A DNA stretch of 64,000 nucleotides, from positions 22,868 to 86,867 of the forward strand of contig JABCSY010000004.1 in the NCBI GenBank assembly GCA_018238625.1, written 5' to 3'. Below the pieces are notes generated by a model. That model saw only the letters and a program-made list of their open reading frames with translations. It searched no databases and had not been told where the DNA came from. The translations under genes and the position numbers were made by a program. Positions 1,688 through 20,256 of this stretch are shown here, in pieces. Position 1 is the first letter of the stretch; every line of letters starts with the position of its first letter. Origin of the DNA: Promethearchaeota archaeon. Its GTDB lineage: Archaea; Asgardarchaeota; Lokiarchaeia; Sigyniarchaeales; SOKP01.

Positions 1688-2956
1688 ATGACTAAAATTG
1701 AACCTGTTGATAAAGATTTTTTTTCTCCGTTTAACGAAGAAGCTTGCACTCTTTGTGGAGAATGTTTTCATAATTGTCCCGTAATGGGCCTTTCTATTGA
1801 AGAATCCATTGAAGAAATGAAAAAATTAATCGCTGGGAATGAAACAAAACGAGTGTTAAAAGAATGTCAGAGTTGTCATTCATGTAATTTTTATTGTCCT
1901 GAAAATGCTCATCCAGCAGAGTTGATTTTGCAGAGATGGAACGAAAAGTACAAAAGAGAGGGGTTAAAAATCCGTGGGAAGCATTATATGACGCTTTATC
2001 CTCACTACCCTAACTTCCGATCTTACGTTATGGACCACATGCCTAAAAAAACGCAAGAACTTGTTAAATCATGGGCAGATTTATCTCCTTTAAAAGGTGA
2101 CACGCTTACTTATCCAGGATGTAACATAATTACCTATGCCGAGTTAACGCAAGCAAGCTTTTTTAAGGATCTAGATATTAGGGGTAGGCTTGAATATTGT
2201 TGTGGAGAAACATTATTTCGAACGGGATACGAAGACGAGTTATTTCAAGTTACTAAGAGGTTAGATAAATGGTTTAATATATTAAAACCAAAAAATTTGC
2301 TAGTTTTGTGCACAGCAGGAACTAATGTTTTCAAAAATGTATTACCTCGTTATGGATTAACCTATAAATTTGATTCTGTTAAATCTTATATCCAATATTT
2401 ATGGGAAAAAATTGAGAATGGTAAAATTCAAATTACAAATAAATTAGATATGACGGTTTCGATTCAAGATTCTTGTTATTCAAAAATGTTTGGAGATGAC
2501 TACATGGATTTACCTCGAAAAATTTTAGAAGCAATTGGGGTAAAAGTAATTGAAATTGAAGCATGTCGCGAAAATATGAGGTGTTGTGGAATTGGAGGCG
2601 GATTTTCTGTGGATTCAGCGTATCACACAATGAAATTAAGATCAGCAACAATGAGAAACATAAAAGAATTTAACAAAGCGAAAGTAGACGCTGTTTGCGT
2701 TTATTGCGCTGGGTGTTTAGCTACTTACAGCACCGCCAAAAAATTATATCTCGGGAAATTTAAAGTGTACCACATTATCGAACTGCTCCAGATGGCCATG
2801 GGAGAAAAACCTATGTCCAATAAAGAGAAAAAAAAAAGGGCTAAACATTTCTTTTGGGGCATAATGAAAAAACAACTCCCGAAATTACCCTCAAAAAAAA
2901 CATTTAAAATAGCAGATCTCCCAGAAGATCCACCACCGTATAGCGAGGCGTATTAA
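1688..2956 (+). CDS. Fe-S oxidoreductase, HdrD/GlpC-like (4Fe-4S dicluster + CCG domains)
   Basis: Two CxxCxxCxxxCP motifs, CCG motifs (YCCGE, RCCGIGGG) and YCAGC. Confidence 0.88.
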   Translation: MTKIEPVDKDFFSPFNEEACTLCGECFHNCPVMGLSIEESIEEMKKLIAGNETKRVLKECQSCHSCNFYCPENAHPAELILQRWNEKYKREGLKIRGKHYMTLYPHYPNFRSYVMDHMPKKTQELVKSWADLSPLKGDTLTYPGCNIITYAELTQASFFKDLDIRGRLEYCCGETLFRTGYEDELFQVTKRLDKWFNILKPKNLLVLCTAGTNVFKNVLPRYGLTYKFDSVKSYIQYLWEKIENGKIQITNKLDMTVSIQDSCYSKMFGDDYMDLPRKILEAIGVKVIEIEACRENMRCCGIGGGFSVDSAYHTMKLRSATMRNIKEFNKAKVDAVCVYCAGCLATYSTAKKLYLGKFKVYHIIELLQMAMGEKPMSNKEKKKRAKHFFWGIMKKQLPKLPSKKTFKIADLPEDPPPYSEAY

Positions 2957-2958
2957 AA

Positions 2959-4317
2959 ATGGTGGAAAATAAAAGAACTCCTGCTTTCAGAGAAGATTTA
3001 TGTGATTTGTGTGGACTTTGTTTTCATCTATGTCCCGTTTTACAATTACCTTTGGATGAAGCAAAAGAAGAGATTCAAAATTTAGTCAAAGGTCGAAAGT
3101 CAAAATATGTACTTGAAAAATGTAATACTTGTTTATCTTGCAATCTATACTGCCCTCAAAATGCTAACCCATATCAATTGATACTCGAGAGATGGAACGA
3201 TTCGTATAAAGAGAGAGGCGCGCCTCCTCTTTACTATTTTGTTTGTCCTACTGAAGATCGTAACATTTGGCAACTTCTAAATTTGTTTTTATCTAATCGA
3301 GAAAGAAGATGGATATATAAGTGGATGCATTACGTTCCTAAGAGCGAGGATACTGTTTTGTTAATTGGAAACTATACACATATATTCCCATTTATTATTG
3401 GAGGTAGTAAATTGCTTAATTACTTCAAGCCTATCGATCGGATCGACCAATGGGAAGGAGGTGCCTACTTATACCAAGGAGGATACTTAGATATTGTAAA
3501 AAAGATAGCTGAGAGGACAAAAAGAGATTTTGATAGTTGGGGCGTCAAAAATGTTGTTGCTACTTTAGATGCTGTTGAGTATTTCTTCAAGGAAGTCCAT
3601 CCGAAGGAAATGGGGGTGAAACACGATCAGAATTTTATAAATTTTCATCGCTGGTTATTAGATAATATTAGCTCCGGAGAAATCAATCTTCAAAACCAAC
3701 TTAATCTAACGGTTACCGTTCACGATAACTGCTTTTCTAAAGCACTAGGAGGATATTGGGAGGAACCAAGAACAATATTGGAGAAATGCGGTTGTAAAAT
3801 ACTTGAGATGAAACACATTAAAAAAGATTCGTTGTGTTGCGGGTTTGGAGCTGGGGCATCGTGGGTTAAGAATATTTCTCTACCTTTTGATATGATCTCT
3901 GAAGGAGTAAAAAAATTTAAGGAAGCAGAAGATACTGGCGCAAAAGCTCTAATATCTTACTGTGGAGGATGTATTTATTTAATGTGGGCTACTAAGGAGT
4001 TGTTGAGAAGTAAAATAGATTTATATCATATCATTGAAATTGTCAGAATGGCAATGGGCGAAGAATTAGATTATCCTAAGGATAACATTAAACGAGCGTG
4101 GGATGTCATTGCGATTATAACTTACTCTTTGCTACTATCGTCTTTTAAGAAAAACTTTTACATAAAAAGTATTACCTACGACAAAGATTTTAGCACATAT
4201 AAACCGAAGAAGTATTTACTATTAAGGTCGATAAGGTATCTATTTGATTTTAAGTTAATTAGAATCCTTTACGCTAAAATGTTTAGGTTAATGATGCCTA
4301 TTATGAAGACACGATAG
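2959..4317 (+). CDS. Fe-S oxidoreductase, HdrD/GlpC-like (paralog of upstream gene)
   Basis: Two CxxCxxCxxxCP motifs, HDNC, LCCGFGAG and YCGGC. Starts 2 nt after the previous stop. Confidence 0.88.
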   Translation: MVENKRTPAFREDLCDLCGLCFHLCPVLQLPLDEAKEEIQNLVKGRKSKYVLEKCNTCLSCNLYCPQNANPYQLILERWNDSYKERGAPPLYYFVCPTEDRNIWQLLNLFLSNRERRWIYKWMHYVPKSEDTVLLIGNYTHIFPFIIGGSKLLNYFKPIDRIDQWEGGAYLYQGGYLDIVKKIAERTKRDFDSWGVKNVVATLDAVEYFFKEVHPKEMGVKHDQNFINFHRWLLDNISSGEINLQNQLNLTVTVHDNCFSKALGGYWEEPRTILEKCGCKILEMKHIKKDSLCCGFGAGASWVKNISLPFDMISEGVKKFKEAEDTGAKALISYCGGCIYLMWATKELLRSKIDLYHIIEIVRMAMGEELDYPKDNIKRAWDVIAIITYSLLLSSFKKNFYIKSITYDKDFSTYKPKKYLLLRSIRYLFDFKLIRILYAKMFRLMMPIMKTR

Positions 4318-11341: not shown

Positions 11342-12451
11342 ATGATGTCTGAAACCTATGAAAACTTTATGATTTATGGATTAGAAAGTACTGGCGAAAA
11401 AGTTAGGTTAGATATTACCGAAGAAGATTTTCGCGCTAATAATGGAACGAACGTATTAAATCCTTACCAAGTACTAGTTATCGTAAAAGAAGGGTTAAGG
11501 AGAATCTATATTTGGAAGGGGGTTGAGTCCCCCGTTAGAAAAAAATTTATTGCGTCGCAAGTCGCCGCACAATTACAAAACGATTTAGTCGTTAATGGTC
11601 ATTTTCATAGATGTAAGATAATTTCGGTTGACCAAGGAGACGAACCACGCGATTTCTTGAGAGCGTTTGATTTTGAATCGATAGAAATTCAAGAGATCTC
11701 GGAAGCTTACAAAAGCGAGTTTAGACAGATTCAACCTATATCTATGGGTAAAGAAAAGAAGGTTTATCAATGGGGGGGACCTCCTCCTGCTTTAAAAGCT
11801 AATAGTACGATTAGTAAAAAAGTAAAAGAATCCGATAGAGAAATTACGCTAAAAAGTAAAGACCCTATTAAACCCCCCGAATTAGATACTAGGAAAATTA
11901 TCGAAAAGATTGTAAAAAATGAGGTTCCAACCAATTTCAAGCGTCAAAATTTGATTTTAGGTAACTTCGAAATTTACGGAGCAGTTATCAAGAAAGCTAA
12001 AATTTTCGGAAAAGAAGTGGAAGAGGTCGATTGGGAGCCAGTTAACTCCTTACCTCACGATATAGTCGAGTTAGATAATCGAACTTTAAGAATTTATTTC
12101 GATGGAGAAAATGGGACGATTGAAGGGCTAGAAATACTCCAAAAAACGAGCGCCCCTCAAATTGAAGAAAAAAAGGATAACAAATTAGACTATAATAAAT
12201 GGACGGTAAAAGAATTGAAGCAATATTGCCAAGAAAGCGACATAAAAATACCTTCGTCGTATAAAAAAGCAGATATTATAAAGCTTATTCAATACGGACC
12301 CACTCTAGATGCTATTGACCAGAAGATTGACTATAACAAGTGGACGGTAAAGCTATTAAAGGAGTTTTGTCAAAAAAATGATATTAAGGTGCTAACTTCT
12401 TATAGAAAAGCAGACTTAGTACGAATTGTGAAAGAATATAATGAAAAATAA
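11342..12451 (+). CDS. Gelsolin-domain protein with two C-terminal SAP/Rho-N-like repeats
   Basis: Gelsolin-repeat pattern VLVIV...RIYIWKG.ESP..KKF.A...A..L...VDQGDEP.DF. Two C-terminal copies of DYNKWTVK.LK..C....IK...SY.KAD. Confidence 0.8.
   Translation: MMSETYENFMIYGLESTGEKVRLDITEEDFRANNGTNVLNPYQVLVIVKEGLRRIYIWKGVESPVRKKFIASQVAAQLQNDLVVNGHFHRCKIISVDQGDEPRDFLRAFDFESIEIQEISEAYKSEFRQIQPISMGKEKKVYQWGGPPPALKANSTISKKVKESDREITLKSKDPIKPPELDTRKIIEKIVKNEVPTNFKRQNLILGNFEIYGAVIKKAKIFGKEVEEVDWEPVNSLPHDIVELDNRTLRIYFDGENGTIEGLEILQKTSAPQIEEKKDNKLDYNKWTVKELKQYCQESDIKIPSSYKKADIIKLIQYGPTLDAIDQKIDYNKWTVKLLKEFCQKNDIKVLTSYRKADLVRIVKEYNEK
12188..12435 (+). repeat. Two coding repeats, 141-bp period (SAP/HeH-like)
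   Basis: gactataataaatggacggtaaa at 12188 and gactataacaagtggacggtaaa at 12329. Confidence 0.85.
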
Positions 12452-12481: not shown

Positions 12482-15451
12482 TCAATCCTGAGAAGCGTAG
12501 AAATCGTCGAAGCTTTCTTGTAACTGAATCATGTATAGCTTTCTCTTTCCAGGTATAACTTTTTCTGTAAGCGTTTTTGCTTTCTCGTAGCAGGTGGCTG
12601 CTTCTACGCGCATTCCTAAGTGTTTATAGGACTGGGCTAATTTTAGAAAAGTGTGAAATGCGAACCAACTTCTTGGGTTGGCTTCTAAAGCTTGGGTAAA
12701 TTTCTCGATAGCACCTTTGTAATTTTTTGAGTTCATTAATACCTCCCCGTATGTATCGTACAGGTTTGCATCGAGAGGTTCGATTTCGATAGCTTTTTCA
12801 ATTGTCTCAATTGCTTCATCGTATCTTCCAATATTACTCAATGAAATGGCTCTATTGTTTAATAACCCTGGCGAGTTTGGATAAAGATCTAAGGCATCGT
12901 CAAGAGTCTTGATCACTTCCAAATAATTACCCATCGTGTAATGCGTAAAGCTTTTCAGTTGATACAACGATTTACGTTCCTGTGGAAATTTTTTCATCAT
13001 CTCATCGATAAGAGCCATTACATCACCTCTCATACTATCGTTCGTAATGTACAAGTGAATTTTTGTATTATAGATATCGAAGTGGTCAGGGGTTAATTCA
13101 ATTGCTTTTTCAATTTCAACTAAAGCCTCTTCAGTCCCATTTGTCTCATTTAAAATATAACTATACAGTTGATAATACCTAGCCAAATGTTTTTTATTCA
13201 GCCCCATTGATATCGCCTTCTCAAATTCCTCAACAAAGAGCTCTTTGTTTGCTTTACTCACATCAAAATTGTATACAATGTTGAATCCGTGAACCAATCC
13301 GGTAATAATATGAGAAAGTGGGTGATTTATGTAATGAAACCTTGCTTTATTGACTATGTCTAAGGCTTTCTCGAACTTTCCTCGTGTTAAATACGAGAAG
13401 GATAGTATCAAATACGCTGCTGTATCGATGCGGGGGTTATGATCGAGTAAATTGATTTTAACTACTTGTTTAATCCAATTTTTCCCCTCTTTATAATTAG
13501 TTGTGAATATGTATAATAGAGCTTTCATTACTGAGAGTTCTAGATCCCTAGGACTTATTTCAATTAATGAATTAATAAGTTCCAAAGGCCCGTCAATTGA
13601 TTTTACACAGCACTCTTTATCTGTTAGGAGGCACAGAAATTTAGTTCGTTGGAGCAAAATATTATCAGGGTATTCAGCTAAAGCTTCTTCTACAACGATT
13701 AAAGCTTTATCGTGGTCAAGATTTATTAGTATTTGGGCTTTTTGAGCAAAAAGCGATGCATCGTAAGCTCTGCTTAACCCAGATTCGATGACTTCTAACG
13801 CTCTATTGAATTTACCCATAAAGAAATAGGTTATTGATTGAAACAAATAACCAATATATTCATCAGGGTGTTTATTTATGATTTCTTCAGTTAGCTCGAG
13901 CGAATCCTCCAATTCTCCATTGCTAGTGTAAAATAAATCTTTCAGAATCATTAGTTCAATATCGTTCAAATTTTTTAAATTATCTGTAAGTAATTCGTTC
14001 ACTTTCGATAGTCTTCCTTTCGCCAACTTACTCTCTATATTCGCCAAAAACTCAGCGTTCTTAGGGAAGTATTCCTTTTTGAATTGAGATGTTCGAATAA
14101 AATTAATTTTGCTCAAATAGAAAATGTCCAAGCTATCAAAAATTCTGTTGTGTAAGAAGTAATACGCTTCGCTATCGGCTGGTTTGTTTATCGAACTCGC
14201 CGTATCAGATGTATCAAAACTTTGAATTACCTCGAAAACGTTTTGAAAGGCGATCCCTTTTATTTTATCTGTATGGTCGATCAAACTCTTCTCGCTCTCA
14301 AATTTATACGCCAAATGCTCGATATACCCCGGAATGAATTTTTTTAAAGCCGGTTTCAAATCGTCGTGGAATAAAATACTACACATATCGCCCGTTATAT
14401 CTTCAAGTAACTCGTTGATATCAGGTATGTGTGGAGATTGAACGCCACTCGCTTTCTGGAACTTACTCAAATAGGTAAATCTCCTAATGAAATCTTCGAT
14501 AATTATATTAAGCATTTTTTCTAACCGTTCTTCAGCCTGAATGTAGTAAGTGTATTTACCGCTTACATTTAGTTTAAAGAAGCATATCGGATAGATGTTA
14601 TCTTCAACGATCTTCTCAATGAAGAAGTTCAATGTTGTTAGCTTTATATCGTATTCTAAAGCAAAATCTTTAGCCGTGATGTAGTTAGGGTATTGATCCG
14701 GGTGATTAATAGCGAGATAAAGCAGAATTTTATCAAAATCCACCTCGTTGGACAAAGTACTTTCAACCTTAGTATAATCCAACCTGAGCACCATGTTCAA
14801 AAATCTGTATTTTATCCCGTTATCATCGATATTGTATTCTTTAAAAAACTCCGCTACTTTATCTGTTATTACATCAACTCTCTTGCTCTCTTCGTCTAAT
14901 ATCGATTGGCGATCTAAATCGTATTTCTTTAACATATTAAAGTATTCTAGCTCACCTGAATTAGTAATCAGATACTCTCGATTATTTTTCTCAACATAAC
15001 CATTATCAAGTAATAAATTCAAGTTTTTTGACAATGAGGATTGATTGATTTTAAGCGGTTCCTCAAGAAAATCTGACCATTTACAATGGTGGTTATTGTA
15101 CAACATCCACAGAATCCAATCATCGTAATTTCTCTTATTTGTTATAGTCTCAGGTGGATAATTCAATGATTTTTCAAGCATATCTTTAACTTGAAGATTG
15201 GCATATTGTTTTCGACCTTCAGCTGTAATCTTATACTTACCCTTCCTCTCCTTCTCAATAAAACCATTATTAATTAAGATTGTAAGATATTTAGACAAAG
15301 TTGCTTGACTTATGTTTACAGGATCTGATTTAAAATCAGACCATGAACAATGGTCGTTATTGGAGAGCATCCAGAGTATAATATGCTCAAAATTTTTGTT
15401 GATTTTCATAGGTGTAATTATACCTTCTGGTGGAAATTTTGGTATACTCAT
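12482..15451 (-). CDS. Tandem winged-helix + TPR-repeat protein (putative ligand-responsive transcription regulator)
   Basis: Two N-terminal repeats ILWML.NN.HC.WSDF...P..I.Q..LSK.L..L...G..EK.....Y.IT..G (MarR-like wHTH) and possibly a third degenerate one. The C-terminal half has many TPRs (e.g. LLNNRAISLSNIGRYDEAIETIEKAIEIEP; YDTYGEVLMNSKNYKGAIEKFTQALEANP). Confidence 0.88.
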   Translation of the reverse strand: MSIPKFPPEGIITPMKINKNFEHIILWMLSNNDHCSWSDFKSDPVNISQATLSKYLTILINNGFIEKERKGKYKITAEGRKQYANLQVKDMLEKSLNYPPETITNKRNYDDWILWMLYNNHHCKWSDFLEEPLKINQSSLSKNLNLLLDNGYVEKNNREYLITNSGELEYFNMLKKYDLDRQSILDEESKRVDVITDKVAEFFKEYNIDDNGIKYRFLNMVLRLDYTKVESTLSNEVDFDKILLYLAINHPDQYPNYITAKDFALEYDIKLTTLNFFIEKIVEDNIYPICFFKLNVSGKYTYYIQAEERLEKMLNIIIEDFIRRFTYLSKFQKASGVQSPHIPDINELLEDITGDMCSILFHDDLKPALKKFIPGYIEHLAYKFESEKSLIDHTDKIKGIAFQNVFEVIQSFDTSDTASSINKPADSEAYYFLHNRIFDSLDIFYLSKINFIRTSQFKKEYFPKNAEFLANIESKLAKGRLSKVNELLTDNLKNLNDIELMILKDLFYTSNGELEDSLELTEEIINKHPDEYIGYLFQSITYFFMGKFNRALEVIESGLSRAYDASLFAQKAQILINLDHDKALIVVEEALAEYPDNILLQRTKFLCLLTDKECCVKSIDGPLELINSLIEISPRDLELSVMKALLYIFTTNYKEGKNWIKQVVKINLLDHNPRIDTAAYLILSFSYLTRGKFEKALDIVNKARFHYINHPLSHIITGLVHGFNIVYNFDVSKANKELFVEEFEKAISMGLNKKHLARYYQLYSYILNETNGTEEALVEIEKAIELTPDHFDIYNTKIHLYITNDSMRGDVMALIDEMMKKFPQERKSLYQLKSFTHYTMGNYLEVIKTLDDALDLYPNSPGLLNNRAISLSNIGRYDEAIETIEKAIEIEPLDANLYDTYGEVLMNSKNYKGAIEKFTQALEANPRSWFAFHTFLKLAQSYKHLGMRVEAATCYEKAKTLTEKVIPGKRKLYMIQLQESFDDFYASQD

Positions 15452-15496
15452 GATTTAATAATGGTATTGCGTCTATATAAGGTTTTTTGTTCGCAT

Positions 15497-15555
15497 CGAA
15501 CTTCGAAGTTCGTTCGAACTTCTCAAAGTCAAACTATATTAAACCTTTCGAACTT
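15497..15555. promoter_or_regulatory. Putative operator in divergent promoter: perfect 16-bp palindrome plus two extra half-sites
   Basis: CGAACTTCGAAGTTCG (15497-15512) is its own reverse complement. TTCGAACTT recurs at 15513-15521 and 15547-15555, flanking a TATA-like TATATTAAA near 15535. Confidence 0.7.
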
Positions 15556-15602
15556 AATCAAATTAACAACAAAAAAAAATAAAAAAAAAGAGGTAAAATA
15601 AA

Positions 15603-15677
15603 ATGAAAAAGGATGAAAATAGAAAACTCATAAAAATGGTAGAATTTAACCCAGCAAATTTAATTTGTAGATATTAA
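15603..15677 (+). CDS. Small peptide 1 (24 aa) MKKDENRKLIKMVEFNPANLICRY
   Basis: GAGGT at 15590-15594, 8 nt before ATG, with an A-rich leader and a T-run after the stop. Similar to peptides 2 and 3. Not in the ORF track. Confidence 0.75.
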   Translation: MKKDENRKLIKMVEFNPANLICRY

Positions 15678-15749
15678 TTAAATAATATTTTTTTTATATA
15701 ATTTTTAAACCAAAAAAAATTAAAAAAAACAAAAACGAGGTAAGATAAA

Positions 15750-15821
15750 ATGGAAAAGTACGATGAAAGATTGATAATAATAAGAAACGCGGGATACATT
15801 CCTGAGCGTTTAGAGTTTTAA
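15750..15821 (+). CDS. Small peptide 2 (23 aa) MEKYDERLIIIRNAGYIPERLEF
   Basis: GAGGT at 15737-15741, 8 nt before ATG, with an A-rich leader and a T-run after the stop. Confidence 0.78.
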   Translation: MEKYDERLIIIRNAGYIPERLEF

Positions 15822-15925
15822 CCTAAATTAATTTTTTTTAATTCAACATTCAAAATTTAACCAAAACAAAAAACAAATCAAAAAAATTAAAAAACAACCA
15901 AAAAATAAAAACGAGGTAAAATGAT

Positions 15926-16000
15926 ATGAAAAGAAAAGAAAAGGATACCCAAACAATCCTAAACCCGACGGGATATAATACTGCAACATTAAGATTTTAA
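15926..16000 (+). CDS. Small peptide 3 (24 aa) MKRKEKDTQTILNPTGYNTATLRF
   Basis: GAGGT at 15913-15917, 8 nt before ATG, with an A-rich leader and a T-run after the stop. Confidence 0.78.
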   Translation: MKRKEKDTQTILNPTGYNTATLRF

Positions 16001-16030
16001 ATTAAATTTTTTTTGTCTTTTTATTTTTAC
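16001..16030 (+). terminator. Oligo-T archaeal-type terminator after the peptide cluster
   Basis: ttttttttgtctttttattttt follows the stop of peptide 3. Similar T-runs follow peptides 1 and 2. Confidence 0.45.
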
Positions 16031-16033
16031 TCC

Positions 16034-16306
16034 TTATTTATTAATACTGCTTTCTATTTCGCTTATTCTTTTTTTACCCATTCTAGTTATCGTGTAATTT
16101 CTCTTACTAACTTTGTGAATATAACACTTCTCAATGAATAAGCGAAGGTATTTTGATAAAGTTGCTTGACTTATATTTACAAGATCCGATTTAAAATCAG
16201 ACCATGAACAATATTCGTTAGTATAGAGCATCCAGAGAATGCAGTATTCAAATTTTTGGGAATTATCTAGAAATTTGTTTAAGATTTCTTTAGATGGATA
16301 AATTAT
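16034..16306 (-). CDS. Stand-alone winged-helix mini-protein, paralog of the first wHTH of 12482-15451 (non-ATG start or pseudogene)
   Basis: CSWSDFKSDLVNISQATLSKYL versus CSWSDFKSDPVNISQATLSKYL. Homology (IIYPSKEIL...KFEYCILW) continues in frame upstream of ATG 16231 with only ATA/ATT starts. The upstream in-frame stop is at 16331-16333. Confidence 0.7.
   Translation of the reverse strand: MIYPSKEILNKFLDNSQKFEYCILWMLYTNEYCSWSDFKSDLVNISQATLSKYLRLFIEKCYIHKVSKRNYTITRMGKKRISEIESSINK
16158..16212. repeat. Direct repeat of 15297-15351 (52/55 identical)
   Basis: Manual alignment. The segment encodes the HTH helices of both wHTH genes. Confidence 0.9.
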
Positions 16307-16395
16307 TTTTCTAATTAATCTAAATTGTCTTTATTTTGTTTTATTGAGAAATCCTTGTTCATGTACTAAAAAAAAGATTAAAATTAATTAGAATT

Positions 16396-17301
16396 TTAAC
16401 TAAATACATTAGTTCCTTTCTGCTCTAAGAGATTTCGAATCTTTACGAGATAGCTTCTTTTATAAAATTGAATTTTTGATTCTGAAAAAGGTAATAAACT
16501 CCAATAATAAGCCAGAATCTCTTCAGGATGTAATCTGTGCTGGTTGTTGTAGGGGTCAATTTCTTCGCACAACTCAAATAATTTAAGTGGAGGAGTTATG
16601 AATTTTGGTCGGTTGTTTTCAAATAAAGGCAAGCATTTATTATCTTTCATTTCAAACTCAAGAAATGTAAAACGGAAGTATTCAAAAAAATATCCACCTC
16701 TAAAAGGAGTTTCAGAATAGAGAAAAGGAACTGCTTTTATCTGGGCCCCGTTATTTTGAAATGTTACATAGCAGTTCTTTCCAATTGTATCCGGATTTGA
16801 CACATATAGGTGTTTATATTCGTTAGGGACATCTAATTCGGGACAAGCTGTAAATCCAAGTTTAAGATATAAGTCATTCCGGAATTTTGTGTTAGTAGTG
16901 CTAATTACGTGAAAAAGTTCGTGTGCGATTAGTTCTTTTAATTCGTCGTATGGCCATTGAACCATAGAAATTGGGACATAGATAGAAGTATTCCTCGTGT
17001 AAGCGGCATCGCATTCCTCTCGACCTGTGGTTTTTATAAGTTTAACGCTGTCCAATAGGTATTCTTTGTACGGCGCGTAGCAAATGTCCAATTCGCTGAA
17101 AATTCTATTAACGATAATTTCCTCAGAATCTGTCCATTCAACCGTTTGTCGGGAAAGAAACTCCACCAAGTCTTCTTTCGATACCTTTTCCGTGGTTCCT
17201 AAGCGAGACTGTAAGTCAAACTCGCTAAAATTAGAAATATAATCGTCTTTTTCGGCGATTACGGAAGATGCTGTTTGAGCATCAAGAAGTTCAGCCTTCA
17301 A
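16396..17301 (-). CDS. Zincin-like metallopeptidase (HExxH)
   Basis: AAYTR...LIAHELFHVI and distal HPEEILA. RBS-like AGGGTGA upstream of the TTG start. Confidence 0.7.
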   Translation of the reverse strand: MKAELLDAQTASSVIAEKDDYISNFSEFDLQSRLGTTEKVSKEDLVEFLSRQTVEWTDSEEIIVNRIFSELDICYAPYKEYLLDSVKLIKTTGREECDAAYTRNTSIYVPISMVQWPYDELKELIAHELFHVISTTNTKFRNDLYLKLGFTACPELDVPNEYKHLYVSNPDTIGKNCYVTFQNNGAQIKAVPFLYSETPFRGGYFFEYFRFTFLEFEMKDNKCLPLFENNRPKFITPPLKLFELCEEIDPYNNQHRLHPEEILAYYWSLLPFSESKIQFYKRSYLVKIRNLLEQKGTNVFS

Positions 17302-17559: not shown

Positions 17560-18936
17560 ATGGTTTATTTTAAGATTAATGGTTTAGGATATAACTGCGG
17601 ACTAACCAAGGATAATTGCCCACAGAAAGCGCAATCTTGTAGGGAATGTATTAAAAAGCGATTATTGGATTTAGGATTCGAATTTGAGTCAACCTTAGAG
17701 GTTATTAAAATTGATTCTGTCGATAAACAGCTTAAACTAGAAAGAAAGACCATTTGGAAGAAATTTTTAGATGTCTTGAATATCAAACATATTCTCTTAA
17801 TGGATAAGCGTTCAGGGCTAACTTTATTAAATTACGCAGTCTCAGGTGTCGATATTGATGCGGATTTACTGAGCGGCTTTATTCAAGCCAATATTACTTT
17901 TTCAGAATCTAGCGAAGTTTCGAACAAAAACATCGTACCTTCCTTCGAGTTTCAATTCTACGAATTTCAATATAAGAAGTTTAACATTCTACTTAAAGAC
18001 GGTGATATTATCAGAGTTTGTTTAATTCTAGATCATAAAGCATCCATTAAACTAAGAAATCAAGTATTTCAGTTCTTAGAGGATTTTGAACCTCAATTTA
18101 AAGATGAACTTATAGATTTTCGAGAAAGGGGCGTGTACATTGATTTTCAAGACATGATAGGTTACATCGTTGAGTTTTTTAACATTAACCTTATGTTTCC
18201 CATGACTTTAGCTCGCTCGATACCACCTTATGAATTAGATAAAGTAAAAAAAAATCGAGTTCAGAAAGCCATATACAACCTCGCAAAAGAAATGCTAGGC
18301 ATAAAGCCCTTTTTTTTCATAAATAACATGCTCATTAGACTAAAAAAAATTGCTGATATTGAGGACGAAGTTATTCTTTATGAACTCTATCAACTATTAG
18401 AGCGTAAAATTATATCTCCAACGCCGATAGAAACAATTGCAAATAACATTGAGTCAGTTCAGTCCACAGATCAGAATAAATTGATAAAATCGAGTTTAAT
18501 AGCTCCAATTATTAATAATAATACCGATCTGGGGGATTTAAAAGAACAATTAACAACTATGGACGTTTACTCAGCGAGTAGATTGATAAGAGAGATTATG
18601 AAAAAAGCTCGAGCCGCAGCAAAAGATTCTAAATTTCAGGTATCCTTAAATGAATACAATAGAGCGCTATTAATTGCTAAAGAGCTAGATTTTAAAGAAG
18701 AAATAGCGAAGATATCGCTTAAGATTTTTAACATCGAAAGTAAGTCCAAATACATTGAGCTTGATTTTAATATTGAAAAAGCAGAAAATGCTGAAAAAAA
18801 AGGCGATGTATTCAATAGCATCAACTATTATCAACATGCGTTAAAAATTCTCGATGAATTCAAGGTGTACAATGTCTTGGATCCCAGAATAAGAAAAATT
18901 AAAAAGAAGATCCAAAAACTCAGAGAAGAAATATAA
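17560..18936 (+). CDS. Asgard-type protein with longin/roadblock-like domain and C-terminal TPR/MIT-like helices
   Basis: HILLMDKRSGLTL...DADLLSGFIQANITFS pattern, N-terminal 4-Cys cluster and helical C-terminus. Confidence 0.6.
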   Translation: MVYFKINGLGYNCGLTKDNCPQKAQSCRECIKKRLLDLGFEFESTLEVIKIDSVDKQLKLERKTIWKKFLDVLNIKHILLMDKRSGLTLLNYAVSGVDIDADLLSGFIQANITFSESSEVSNKNIVPSFEFQFYEFQYKKFNILLKDGDIIRVCLILDHKASIKLRNQVFQFLEDFEPQFKDELIDFRERGVYIDFQDMIGYIVEFFNINLMFPMTLARSIPPYELDKVKKNRVQKAIYNLAKEMLGIKPFFFINNMLIRLKKIADIEDEVILYELYQLLERKIISPTPIETIANNIESVQSTDQNKLIKSSLIAPIINNNTDLGDLKEQLTTMDVYSASRLIREIMKKARAAAKDSKFQVSLNEYNRALLIAKELDFKEEIAKISLKIFNIESKSKYIELDFNIEKAENAEKKGDVFNSINYYQHALKILDEFKVYNVLDPRIRKIKKKIQKLREEI

Positions 18937-19230: not shown

Positions 19231-20256
19231 ATAGTAAATAATAGATTAATAAAAAAAATAACTACAAGAGTACTAACAGATAGTTCTGAAATTTTAACTT
19301 ATTTGCAATTTGGAACTAATATTCCAATTCTCCCTGATCTTTCAAAATACATTTTACATGATCTGGAGTACTTTAAAGCAAAATCCATTTTGCTATTAGA
19401 AGGTGGAAATCCTGTTGGACAAGTATTAGTATATGACGATGGGCGAGATGCTTTATTTTTTGGATATTTTGGCATATTGAATCATAATAGTGCAAAAATA
19501 AATTTTTTAATTGATGAGCTTATTAAATATGCGAAAGAAAAAGAATATAAATTAATAAGAGGACCAATAAATATACCGGTAATTATATATGGATGGGGAT
19601 TTATGAAAGAAGGTAGTTTCGAAAGTTTATTTATTACTAAACCTGTAAATCCTCCAATATATCCAAAAACATTCTTAAAAAAGAAATTTTATGTAAAATC
19701 TGAACAGGTGACTTGGTTAGGTCCTCGTTTACCTCGATTTGATCCATGGAAACTCAAGAGATATGATTATAGTGATTACGAATATTTTTACCCTAATGAT
19801 ATTGCTGATTTTAAAAAGTATAAATCCGATTTTTTAAGAATACATGCAGAAAACTTGCCCCTCTCCGCTCAAATTACTCCGAGGATAAATGGGGTTTATG
19901 ATAGTTATGTAGACTTTGTTTTTAGATATGGATTTAACTTTATGATTTTTTTTGTAAAATTTAAACCTACAGAAAAAATTGTTGCTTGTGGAGCTTATTT
20001 ACCAAATCCGTTTAGAAAGGATTTAAAAGGAAACTATGATTCTTGTGTAATCTATACTTGGGCAGTTGAATCTAAACATAGGCGTAAGGGATTAGGAATG
20101 CTAATGTATGGGGCTACATCTCAATTACTATGGAAACAAAAAATTAAATATGGTATAGGCCCTATGCCTAAAAGTAATATTGCCAATATGGGTTTTGCGG
20201 TGAAACTTGGTGGTGTTATTAGTAGAACTCATCTTATTTTTGAATACAAGGTATAA
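19231..20256 (+). CDS. GNAT-fold N-acyltransferase
   Basis: FFGYF...IRGPIN and acetyl-CoA motif AVESKHRRKGLG. The frame is open upstream of TTG 19303 to ATA 19231, preceded by AAGGTGG. Confidence 0.75.
   Translation: MVNNRLIKKITTRVLTDSSEILTYLQFGTNIPILPDLSKYILHDLEYFKAKSILLLEGGNPVGQVLVYDDGRDALFFGYFGILNHNSAKINFLIDELIKYAKEKEYKLIRGPINIPVIIYGWGFMKEGSFESLFITKPVNPPIYPKTFLKKKFYVKSEQVTWLGPRLPRFDPWKLKRYDYSDYEYFYPNDIADFKKYKSDFLRIHAENLPLSAQITPRINGVYDSYVDFVFRYGFNFMIFFVKFKPTEKIVACGAYLPNPFRKDLKGNYDSCVIYTWAVESKHRRKGLGMLMYGATSQLLWKQKIKYGIGPMPKSNIANMGFAVKLGGVISRTHLIFEYKV

Follow-up and report, generated by a model that had tools for sequence, protein, structure and literature searches.

A 64,000-nucleotide (nt) stretch of DNA from a Promethearchaeota archaeon (the window; positions 22868-86867 of contig JABCSY010000004.1, in a 4.29-Mb genome of 201 contigs) carries a gene for a large regulator of 989 amino acids (aa), which combines winged-helix domains with a long array of tetratricopeptide repeats (TPRs) and is transcribed divergently from three open reading frames (ORFs) of 23-24 aa. 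Conservation of these genes and of the DNA between them identifies an undescribed, conserved module of a regulator and micro-genes, at most analogous to the RRNPP receptor-peptide systems found in Bacillota and their phages (Rap, Rgg, NprR, PlcR, PrgX, AimR). That the module is real and that the peptides are translated genes appears highly probable from the sequence comparisons. Our tentative interpretation is that it constitutes a self-contained module of one family of the Promethearchaeia, in which the peptides may act as intracellular partners of the TPR array. The original prediction, made from the letters of the window, had described the tandem winged-helix and TPR protein, the three related ORFs and a perfect palindrome in the shared promoter. 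All of these were recovered: the domains are supported by Pfam, each ORF is led by a Shine-Dalgarno (SD) sequence, and the palindrome belongs to a larger array of three half-sites. The elements of the locus are as follows.

12482-15451, minus strand: regulator of 989 aa, with two tandem winged-helix domains, a middle region and a TPR array
15473-15482, minus strand: TATA-like box of the regulator gene, about 21-30 nt upstream of its ATG; 8 of 10 columns kept in at least 9 of 11 orthologs
15497-15522: operator-like element flanked by the two TATA boxes; its half-sites, three in number, alternate between GAAGTTCG and CGAACTTC
15497-15512: perfect 16-bp palindrome CGAACTTCGAAGTTCG; an overlapping 18-bp inverted repeat completes the operator-like element
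15531-15544, plus strand: TATA-like box of the peptide operon; 11 of 14 columns kept in at least 9 of 11 orthologs
15547-15555: additional half-site TTCGAACTT, downstream of the TATA box of the peptide operon and ahead of the presumed start of transcription
15603-15677, plus strand: pepA, 24 aa, family A, MKKDENRKLIKMVEFNPANLICRY, with a tail of the type FNPxxLxxRF/Y; SD sequence GAGGT at 15590-15594, run of eight T (T8) at 15688-15695
15750-15821, plus strand: pepB, 23 aa, family B, MEKYDERLIIIRNAGYIPERLEF; SD sequence at 15737-15741, T8 run at 15832-15839
15926-16000, plus strand: pepC, 24 aa, family C, MKRKEKDTQTILNPTGYNTATLRF, with a tail of the type ILNPTGYxxxxxRF/Y; SD sequence at 15913-15917, T8 run at 16007-16014

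The first peptide start lies 151 nt upstream of the regulator gene. Contigs of another study bridge 15249-15831 and 15802-16743, each with 0-1 differing letters, and therefore the layout, including a duplicated piece of winged helix-turn-helix (wHTH) sequence behind the peptides, is real and not an artefact of assembly.

Each peptide ORF is preceded by a repeated A-rich leader with the motif GAGGTAA (repeat families D1/D3) and followed within about 15 nt by the T8 run. The peptides share a common build of a charged N-terminus, an Ile-rich strand, a turn of the type N-A/P-G and an aromatic C-terminal tail, and family B follows the consensus MEKxEKRxIIIKNAGYxPxRLxF. The succession of strand, turn and aromatic tail suggests a beta-hairpin. 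Inspection by eye revealed strongly charged N-termini and a hydrophobic stretch of just 3-5 residues, and no signal-like segment. All three peptides are unannotated and absent from a collection of about 15 billion predicted proteins. Between 15300 and 16400 neither an Rfam match (E ≤ 1) nor a tRNA was detected, and for 14900-16300 no covering RNA run was listed, the covering contigs all being DNA. In one metagenome run an in-frame deletion of 3 nt was seen inside pepB, at window position 15771 (depth 4.5 of 14.2).

For comparison, eleven orthologous loci with 61-87% identity were available, ten of them with upstream DNA (L009 lacks it), which together with the window gives 11 compared loci. 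SD-led divergent ORFs of 22-29 codons are present in all 11; family B was found in all of them, family A in 8 and family C in 7. Changes of peptide length across the orthologs are whole codons, and the third codon position varies most. Among 15 distinct DNA versions of pepB the Ile-Ile-Ile stretch, the Asn and the Gly are invariant at the protein level, while Ile is encoded by ATA, ATC or ATT and Gly by all four of its codons. The pooled pairwise ratio of nonsynonymous to synonymous differences (pN/pS) is 0.64 for family A and 0.51 for both B and C, compared to 0.25 for the regulator in the same 11 orthologs; the peptides are thus constrained, to a lesser extent than the regulator.

A profile hidden Markov model (HMM) was trained on 35 peptides, all taken from other genomes so that those of the window were left out, after removal of one outlier (L030_829). 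Among 59,289 small ORFs of the genome it placed pepB first (E 8.1e-9), pepC second (E 5.6e-8) and pepA third (E 1.1e-3). Rank 4 (E 0.11) fell to an orphan family-C-like ORF of 37 codons elsewhere in the same genome (G000:C73:5981-6094), which has the AAAACGAGGT leader of the window peptides and a pepC-like start, then diverges; it overlaps a 323-aa ORF at the latter's 3′ end. Metagenome contigs supplied 27 further loci, and peptides were found in 11 of the 12 with at least 800 nt of upstream sequence; since several of them are nearly the same as loci from the genomes, they do not count as independent. The scan of divergent regions for small ORFs that had been suggested with the original prediction hence returned such ORFs at every orthologous genomic locus with upstream sequence and at nearly every metagenomic one, with the same three families recurring; the outcome named there as refuting, homologous loci devoid of adjacent small ORFs, did not occur.

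In the regulator the winged helices occupy residues ~20-90 and ~110-170, a family-specific middle region residues ~190-560 and the canonical TPR array residues ~560-965. The Pfam family HTH_45 (PF14947) matches in two stretches with 44.5 bits (cut-off 25.5), and further winged-helix matches in Pfam and NCBIfam include HTH_34, MarR, ArsR-type and Sso10a/Lrs14-type families. The TPR region is densely covered by many Pfam TPR families above their cut-offs (TPR_2, E 1.9e-27). For residues ~190-560 neither Pfam nor NCBIfam gave a family match; an atlas search with this part of a homolog (P0004) returned weak TPR-like leads only (best score 0.80), which were not used as evidence. No NTPase domain was found anywhere in the protein with the same two databases. 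The match to HTH_45 points to an archaeal winged-helix transcription factor, which would accordingly bind DNA. A reading of the tandem winged helices as an ESCRT-II-like module that does not bind DNA, prompted by PMC10936438, is less likely because the matches are to DNA-binding families and the palindrome is conserved. At E ≤ 1e-5 the searches yielded 917 homologs. Within the regulator, the TPR part evolves fastest (pN/pS 0.30 vs. 0.21-0.24 for the other parts).

The operator-like element is the best-conserved intergenic stretch at the locus. In the alignment of the 11 orthologs 15 of its 26 columns show no variation and 22 agree in at least 9 sequences, as compared to 0 of 21, 3 of 14 and 1 of 8 invariant columns in neighbouring spacers. 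The palindrome has no second match in the window even when up to 3 mismatches are allowed, and the whole 26-nt element occurs as a single copy in the 4.29-Mb genome with up to 6 mismatches allowed; this uniqueness suggests a closed loop. Its half-sites recur across the regulator family: GAAGTTC is present in 38 of 67 upstream regions of family members vs. 151 of 4000 random genome windows, and GTTCGAA in 25 of 67 vs. 88 of 4000. According to this pattern the regulator probably acts at 15497-15522. In archaea, a site upstream of the TATA box is the position typical of activators, and since the element stands upstream of both TATA boxes, we infer activation of both transcripts. The additional half-site at 15547-15555, past the TATA box, could serve repression. 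As the TATA-like box of the regulator gene is only about 21-30 nt away from the ATG, its transcript would be leaderless or nearly so.

The names on homologous proteins are consistent with an origin in the Promethearchaeia, and the orthologs with 64-87% identity belong to Promethearchaeia or Promethearchaeota archaeon (a class within the kingdom Promethearchaeati, Asgard, according to NCBI), which supports the Asgard-archaeal origin that had been proposed from the sequence. The regulator family is confined to one family of this class and rich in paralogs. Of 61 related genomes searched, 35 of the 36 that belong to the genus contain it, mostly with numerous matches each, and none of the 14 from the sister family does. 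With the N-terminal 420 residues, i.e. the two winged helices and the middle region, 56 of 68 genomes of the organism's own family gave matches, usually several paralogs each, compared to a single one of 232 genomes elsewhere in the phylum. Receptor paralogs number 2-14 per genome. The genome of the window contains a second full paralog of 639 aa (G000:C8:1-2160), which begins 238 nt from a contig end; a related GGAAGTTTCGAACTT motif lies upstream of it, and because the contig breaks in this A/T-rich upstream stretch, its partner genes are not visible.

Comparison of the loci also revealed what the window lacks. In 9 of the 11 orthologous loci (L002-L004, L006-L008, L010-L012; e.g. L003:4622-4906) the divergent operon starts with a gene for a protein of 89-95 aa that begins with MAQA, here called MAQ. 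It was apparently lost from the window and from one other locus by deletion between A-rich leaders. The original prediction was therefore right about the three peptides and incomplete about the operon. The MAQ family also occurs at paralogous loci; among 1.84 billion proteins it forms 76 representative clusters, all of 70-104 aa, named hypothetical protein wherever a name is given, and Pfam shows no family common to more than 2 of 23 MAQ proteins. Beyond the peptides the neighbours differ among the 11 loci and include an HExxH protein, GNAT, DJ-1-like and membrane proteins and a leucine-rich repeat (LRR) protein. As judged from these comparisons, the core module is the regulator, the operator and an operon of small proteins, of which the window carries a reduced version.

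The pairing of peptides with regulators extends over the paralogs. We scanned 62 loci of the family with at least 900 nt of upstream sequence, leaving out loci with less, for ORFs of 19-30 aa that follow a purine-rich SD sequence, begin with a charged N-terminal part, contain either a hydrophobic run or NP and have an aromatic residue in one of the final three positions. This filter was passed by 38 peptides at 21 of the 62 loci on the divergent strand and by none on the control strand. The hits follow the length of the regulator.

Regulators of at least 950 aa: peptides at 15 of 21 loci
Regulators of 800-949 aa: peptides at 6 of 15 loci
Regulators of 600-799 aa: peptides at 0 of 25 loci

The count is conservative, since some loci with long TPR arrays have peptides ending in Arg. 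The short-TPR paralogs often have a divergent protein of 65-80 aa with a tail of the type YYxLNPxKFxFxLxDL, or a small membrane protein. Another 19 loci come from three further genera of the family; read from the list, the first gene encodes 69-92 aa in 15 cases, hairpin-type peptides are present in 7 and nothing was found in 3.

Some paralogs have other partners. A subgroup of about 825 aa (L027, ~185-930 of the divergent strand; L043) is accompanied by a divergent gene for a histidine-kinase-like protein in place of peptide genes. In two genomes (L026 and L082) a different 23-aa peptide (MNPKKFKKPLPLEGYWNCYGRT) is encoded divergently, 166-188 nt from the start of regulators of about 835 aa. 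Zinc-ribbon-like mini-proteins of 31-47 aa with a CxxC...CxxC pattern are part of the same divergent operons at 9 of the 19 loci (L118-L131, another genus of the family) and constitute one more family of small proteins linked to these regulators.

According to the mechanism that we propose, the 989-aa protein would bind the array of GAAGTTCG half-sites upstream of the divergent TATA boxes by its tandem winged helices, and the bound regulator would control its own gene together with the divergent set of small genes, i.e. three peptides of about 23 aa in the window and MAQ as the first gene in most relatives. The peptides would remain in the cell and dock as cognate partners on the long TPR array, closing a feedback loop that resembles RRNPP receptor-peptide pairs in its logic, not by homology. 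Docking is the best single model because of the link between peptides and long TPR arrays, the fast evolution of both the TPR part and the peptides, and the uniqueness of the operator. Nevertheless, we hold binding of the peptides to the TPR array with confidence somewhat below an even chance, in part because joint duplication of regulators and their targets explains much of the pattern.

Several observations weigh against docking. The pairing itself, and the apparent co-variation of peptide tails with the paralog class, would also be expected from such co-duplication. Since the length classes of the regulators are clades, the correlation with TPR length rests on few independent events, and 6 of the 21 loci with the longest TPR regulators failed the peptide filter, some of them with peptides ending in Arg. 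Constraint on the peptides is merely moderate. The orphan family-C-like ORF has no regulator of the family nearby, and one orthologous metagenome locus (L104) shows the MAQ gene followed by unrelated sequence, with no peptides. Homology of the MAQ C-terminus to the peptide tails was considered and dropped (hhalign probability 4.5%).

The alternative with most weight, though we consider it somewhat doubtful, is that the peptides are output only. In that case the small proteins would act on other targets, as inhibitors, as membrane or competitive factors or as subunits of another complex, and the TPR array would sense a different protein or signal. A transcription factor beside its target operon is the default reading of such a locus, and it agrees with operon contents that differ by lineage (MAQ, CxxC ribbons, hairpin peptides, membrane proteins of ~110-130 aa), with the histidine-kinase-like gene that takes the place of peptides beside the ~825-aa subgroup, and with the existence of a peptide gene lacking a regulator. 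Output alone, however, leaves unexplained why peptide genes associate with long TPR arrays and why the only strong operator of the genome sits at the regulator's own locus; moreover, the peptides do not have the hydrophobic or amphipathic character of membrane-active peptides.

A secreted pheromone, as in quorum sensing, is unlikely. In this reading, export and processing of the peptides, or of their C-terminal parts, would be followed by re-import and by binding to the TPR receptor, in the manner of Rgg/SHP, PlcR/PapR or AimR/AimP. By analogy to these, and given the 2-14 receptor paralogs per genome and the fast divergence of their cognate peptides, a pherotype-like network of Asgard archaea could be imagined. 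Cells would release the peptides of ~23 aa, or just the aromatic C-terminal halves, and the TPR receptors of their neighbours would sense them; this we regard as equally improbable. The architecture is RRNPP-like in its divergent short peptide gene, the conserved C-terminal part and many receptor-peptide pairs per genome, and peptide import is conceivable because the genome has 7 genes for OppA-type family-5 solute-binding proteins. The charged N-termini and the 3-5 hydrophobic residues, with no signal sequence visible by eye, speak against export and make this the less likely variant. Furthermore, the loci have no conserved exporter or processing protease next to them, the HExxH protein encoded behind the peptides has no signal sequence and is absent from 29 of 37 genomes of the genus, and homology to RRNPP receptors was not detected.

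Very unlikely is a role of the peptides as precursors of ribosomally synthesized and post-translationally modified peptides (RiPPs), which would be modified by enzymes encoded elsewhere, one of the winged helices perhaps being a leader binder like a RiPP recognition element (RRE). PqqA and MftA come to mind in view of the length of ~23 aa, the succession of several paralogous precursors, the conservation of the strand and the aromatic C-terminal end, and RREs are winged-helix folds that bind leader strands. Against this, the surroundings of the loci have no modifying enzyme in common, and the genes past the peptides differ in nearly every ortholog; families A-C show no conserved pattern of Cys, Ser or Thr, and Pfam places the winged helices in DNA-binding families, not in PqqD. 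That the ORFs are non-genes, i.e. chance frames or a repeated promoter or leader element, has next to no probability: although the spacer is AT-rich, with A-rich repeats, and neither the protein collection nor any RNA run contains the ORFs, their start, stop, SD sequence and length are conserved in 11 of 11 genomes, they show codon periodicity and synonymous variation at invariant residues, the control strand gave 0 of 62, an independent profile ranks them 1-3 of 59,289, and no Rfam or tRNA match accounts for the stretch.

The favoured model, i.e. intracellular peptides docking on the regulator, invites comparison with known systems. RRNPP members likewise combine a DNA-binding protein and a TPR-type sensor with short peptide genes adjacent to the receptor gene, with functional conservation at the C-terminal side of the peptides, many paralogous pairs per genome (more than 25 receptor-peptide pairs in Paenibacillus, according to the abstract of PMC7425212) and fast peptide evolution. 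The differences lie in two winged helices as compared to the XRE helix-turn-helix of the DNA-binding RRNPP members, in canonical TPR_1/TPR_2 repeats, in 2-3 different peptide genes plus a protein of ~95 aa per receptor, in the lack of a visible signal sequence and in the archaeal host. When all PDB chains were searched with a profile derived from 37 members of the family, the best 60 of 249 hits were canonical TPR proteins, with OGT, the APC subunits APC3/7, TOM70, Hop and designed CTPRs as nearest solved relatives, and no RRNPP receptor (Rap, Rgg, PlcR, NprR, PrgX, AimR) is among these 60. A TPR-type repeat domain is thus present, but its canonical TPRs show no kinship to RRNPP. Because the winged helix is not an XRE domain, no RRNPP receptor appears among the best 60 PDB hits and the hosts are archaeal, the family does not belong to RRNPP. 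The peptide-sensing circuit, analogous or convergent to RRNPP, that had been predicted for this locus therefore fared unevenly: the conserved pairing of peptides and regulator stands, homology to RRNPP was not found, and quorum sensing lacks support given the charged N-termini.

Rgg/SHP pairs of streptococci share the divergent arrangement and unannotated peptide genes of about 22-24 codons. SHPs are hydrophobic and exported by PptAB and Eep, whereas the peptides described here are highly charged with a hydrophobic strand of 3-5 residues; PptAB and Eep are both named in the abstract of PMC11323143. The logic that we favour is closest to SinI/SinR, where an intracellular small protein is encoded next to the regulator that it modulates in a feedback loop; folds and sizes are unrelated, and in the present case docking would take place on a long TPR array, with several genes for ligands. 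STAND regulators of the MalT/LAL/AfsR type also unite a DNA-binding domain and a TPR sensor array in one large polypeptide. The present family differs from them in its N-terminal DNA-binding domain, in its pairing with peptide genes and in that Pfam and NCBIfam revealed no NTPase domain. PqqA/PqqD resemble the module by precursors of ~23 aa and by a winged helix that could bind a peptide strand, and differ by conserved modifying enzymes nearby and by PqqD-family membership, neither of which was found here.

How Asgard archaea regulate their genes and exchange signals is almost unexplored, and only a small number of them have been cultured. The original prediction knew of no description of such a circuit in them, and literature searches (supplements aside) agree, having found no description of the system, of the regulator family or of archaeal peptide-receptor regulators. 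The abstract of a 2025 paper on Haloferax describes knowledge of cell-cell communication among archaea as scant (PMC12240190), and in PMC12700828 the word archaea occurs only in the reference list. The locus yields a new, large and lineage-specific regulator family with a predicted operator, as well as unannotated micro-genes, namely at least three families of conserved peptides of ~23 aa, which gene callers miss, and an unnamed protein family of ~70-95 aa. If the peptides are TPR ligands, the archaeal lineage closest to eukaryotes would possess, by convergence, an equivalent of the receptor-peptide switches of bacteria. Recognition of peptides by TPRs is otherwise mostly a eukaryote-style theme. 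Should the secreted network prove true, it would stand as the first case of signalling between archaeal cells by peptides, with an evolutionary origin independent of RRNPP. The ligand question is open to direct test with synthetic peptides and recombinant protein, for which no culture is needed.

Two further genes behind the peptides had been counted among the parts of the system, a stand-alone copy of the DNA-binding domain and a peptidase with an HExxH motif.

16034-16231, minus strand: mini-wHTH of 65 aa, with 55% aa identity to regulator residues 28-87 and a 76% nt repeat (D2)
16396-17301, minus strand: HExxH protein of 301 aa with the motif HELFH, lineage-restricted and annotated as hypothetical

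Both genes are present, and neither was borne out as part of the module: the first appears to be a remnant in the window, the second a syntenic passenger in 8 of 37 genomes of the genus. The homologous frame of the mini-wHTH is open up to 16327, with no ATG, GTG or TTG ahead of the Met. In 14 of 17 ortholog loci no second wHTH was found (E ≤ 1e-3, clear identity); L112 has a short piece and L083 a weak hit with 25% identity. The mini-wHTH is not unique to the window, since at the equivalent position past the peptides L090 carries a full gene (~2400-3237) for an LRR-repeat protein that ends in a winged helix matching the mini-wHTH including its last residues. As the same C-terminal sequence ends a longer protein at that position in a relative, the mini-wHTH would be a truncated remnant, probably decaying and not a core part.

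The assignment of the HExxH protein as a peptidase derives from the motif: the zinc metallopeptidase family DUF5700 (PF18958) stays below its cut-off (E 0.014, 15.2 bits vs. 25), no match was obtained in NCBIfam and no significant relative in the PDB (best E 0.017). All of its 89 homologs are unnamed or hypothetical, and PF18958 was detected in 4 of them. In 7 of the 8 genus genomes that have it, the gene lies on the same contig as a regulator of the family, at a distance of 0.4-10.7 kb. A role as maturation protease or core part was rejected in view of its presence in just these 8 genomes.

Further downstream, the window encodes a 458-aa protein (17560-18936, plus strand), for which no Pfam or NCBIfam family was found and which shows a weak MIT-like C-terminus (E 0.055). 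The relative L003 lacks this ORF along with the HExxH gene and the mini-wHTH; there, the gene for GNAT (window position 19303) comes straight after the peptides. On the other side, convergent with the regulator gene, a 369-aa protein is encoded at 11342-12451 on the plus strand; its gelsolin repeat (E 2e-4) and two HeH/SAP-type motifs form a eukaryote-like combination.

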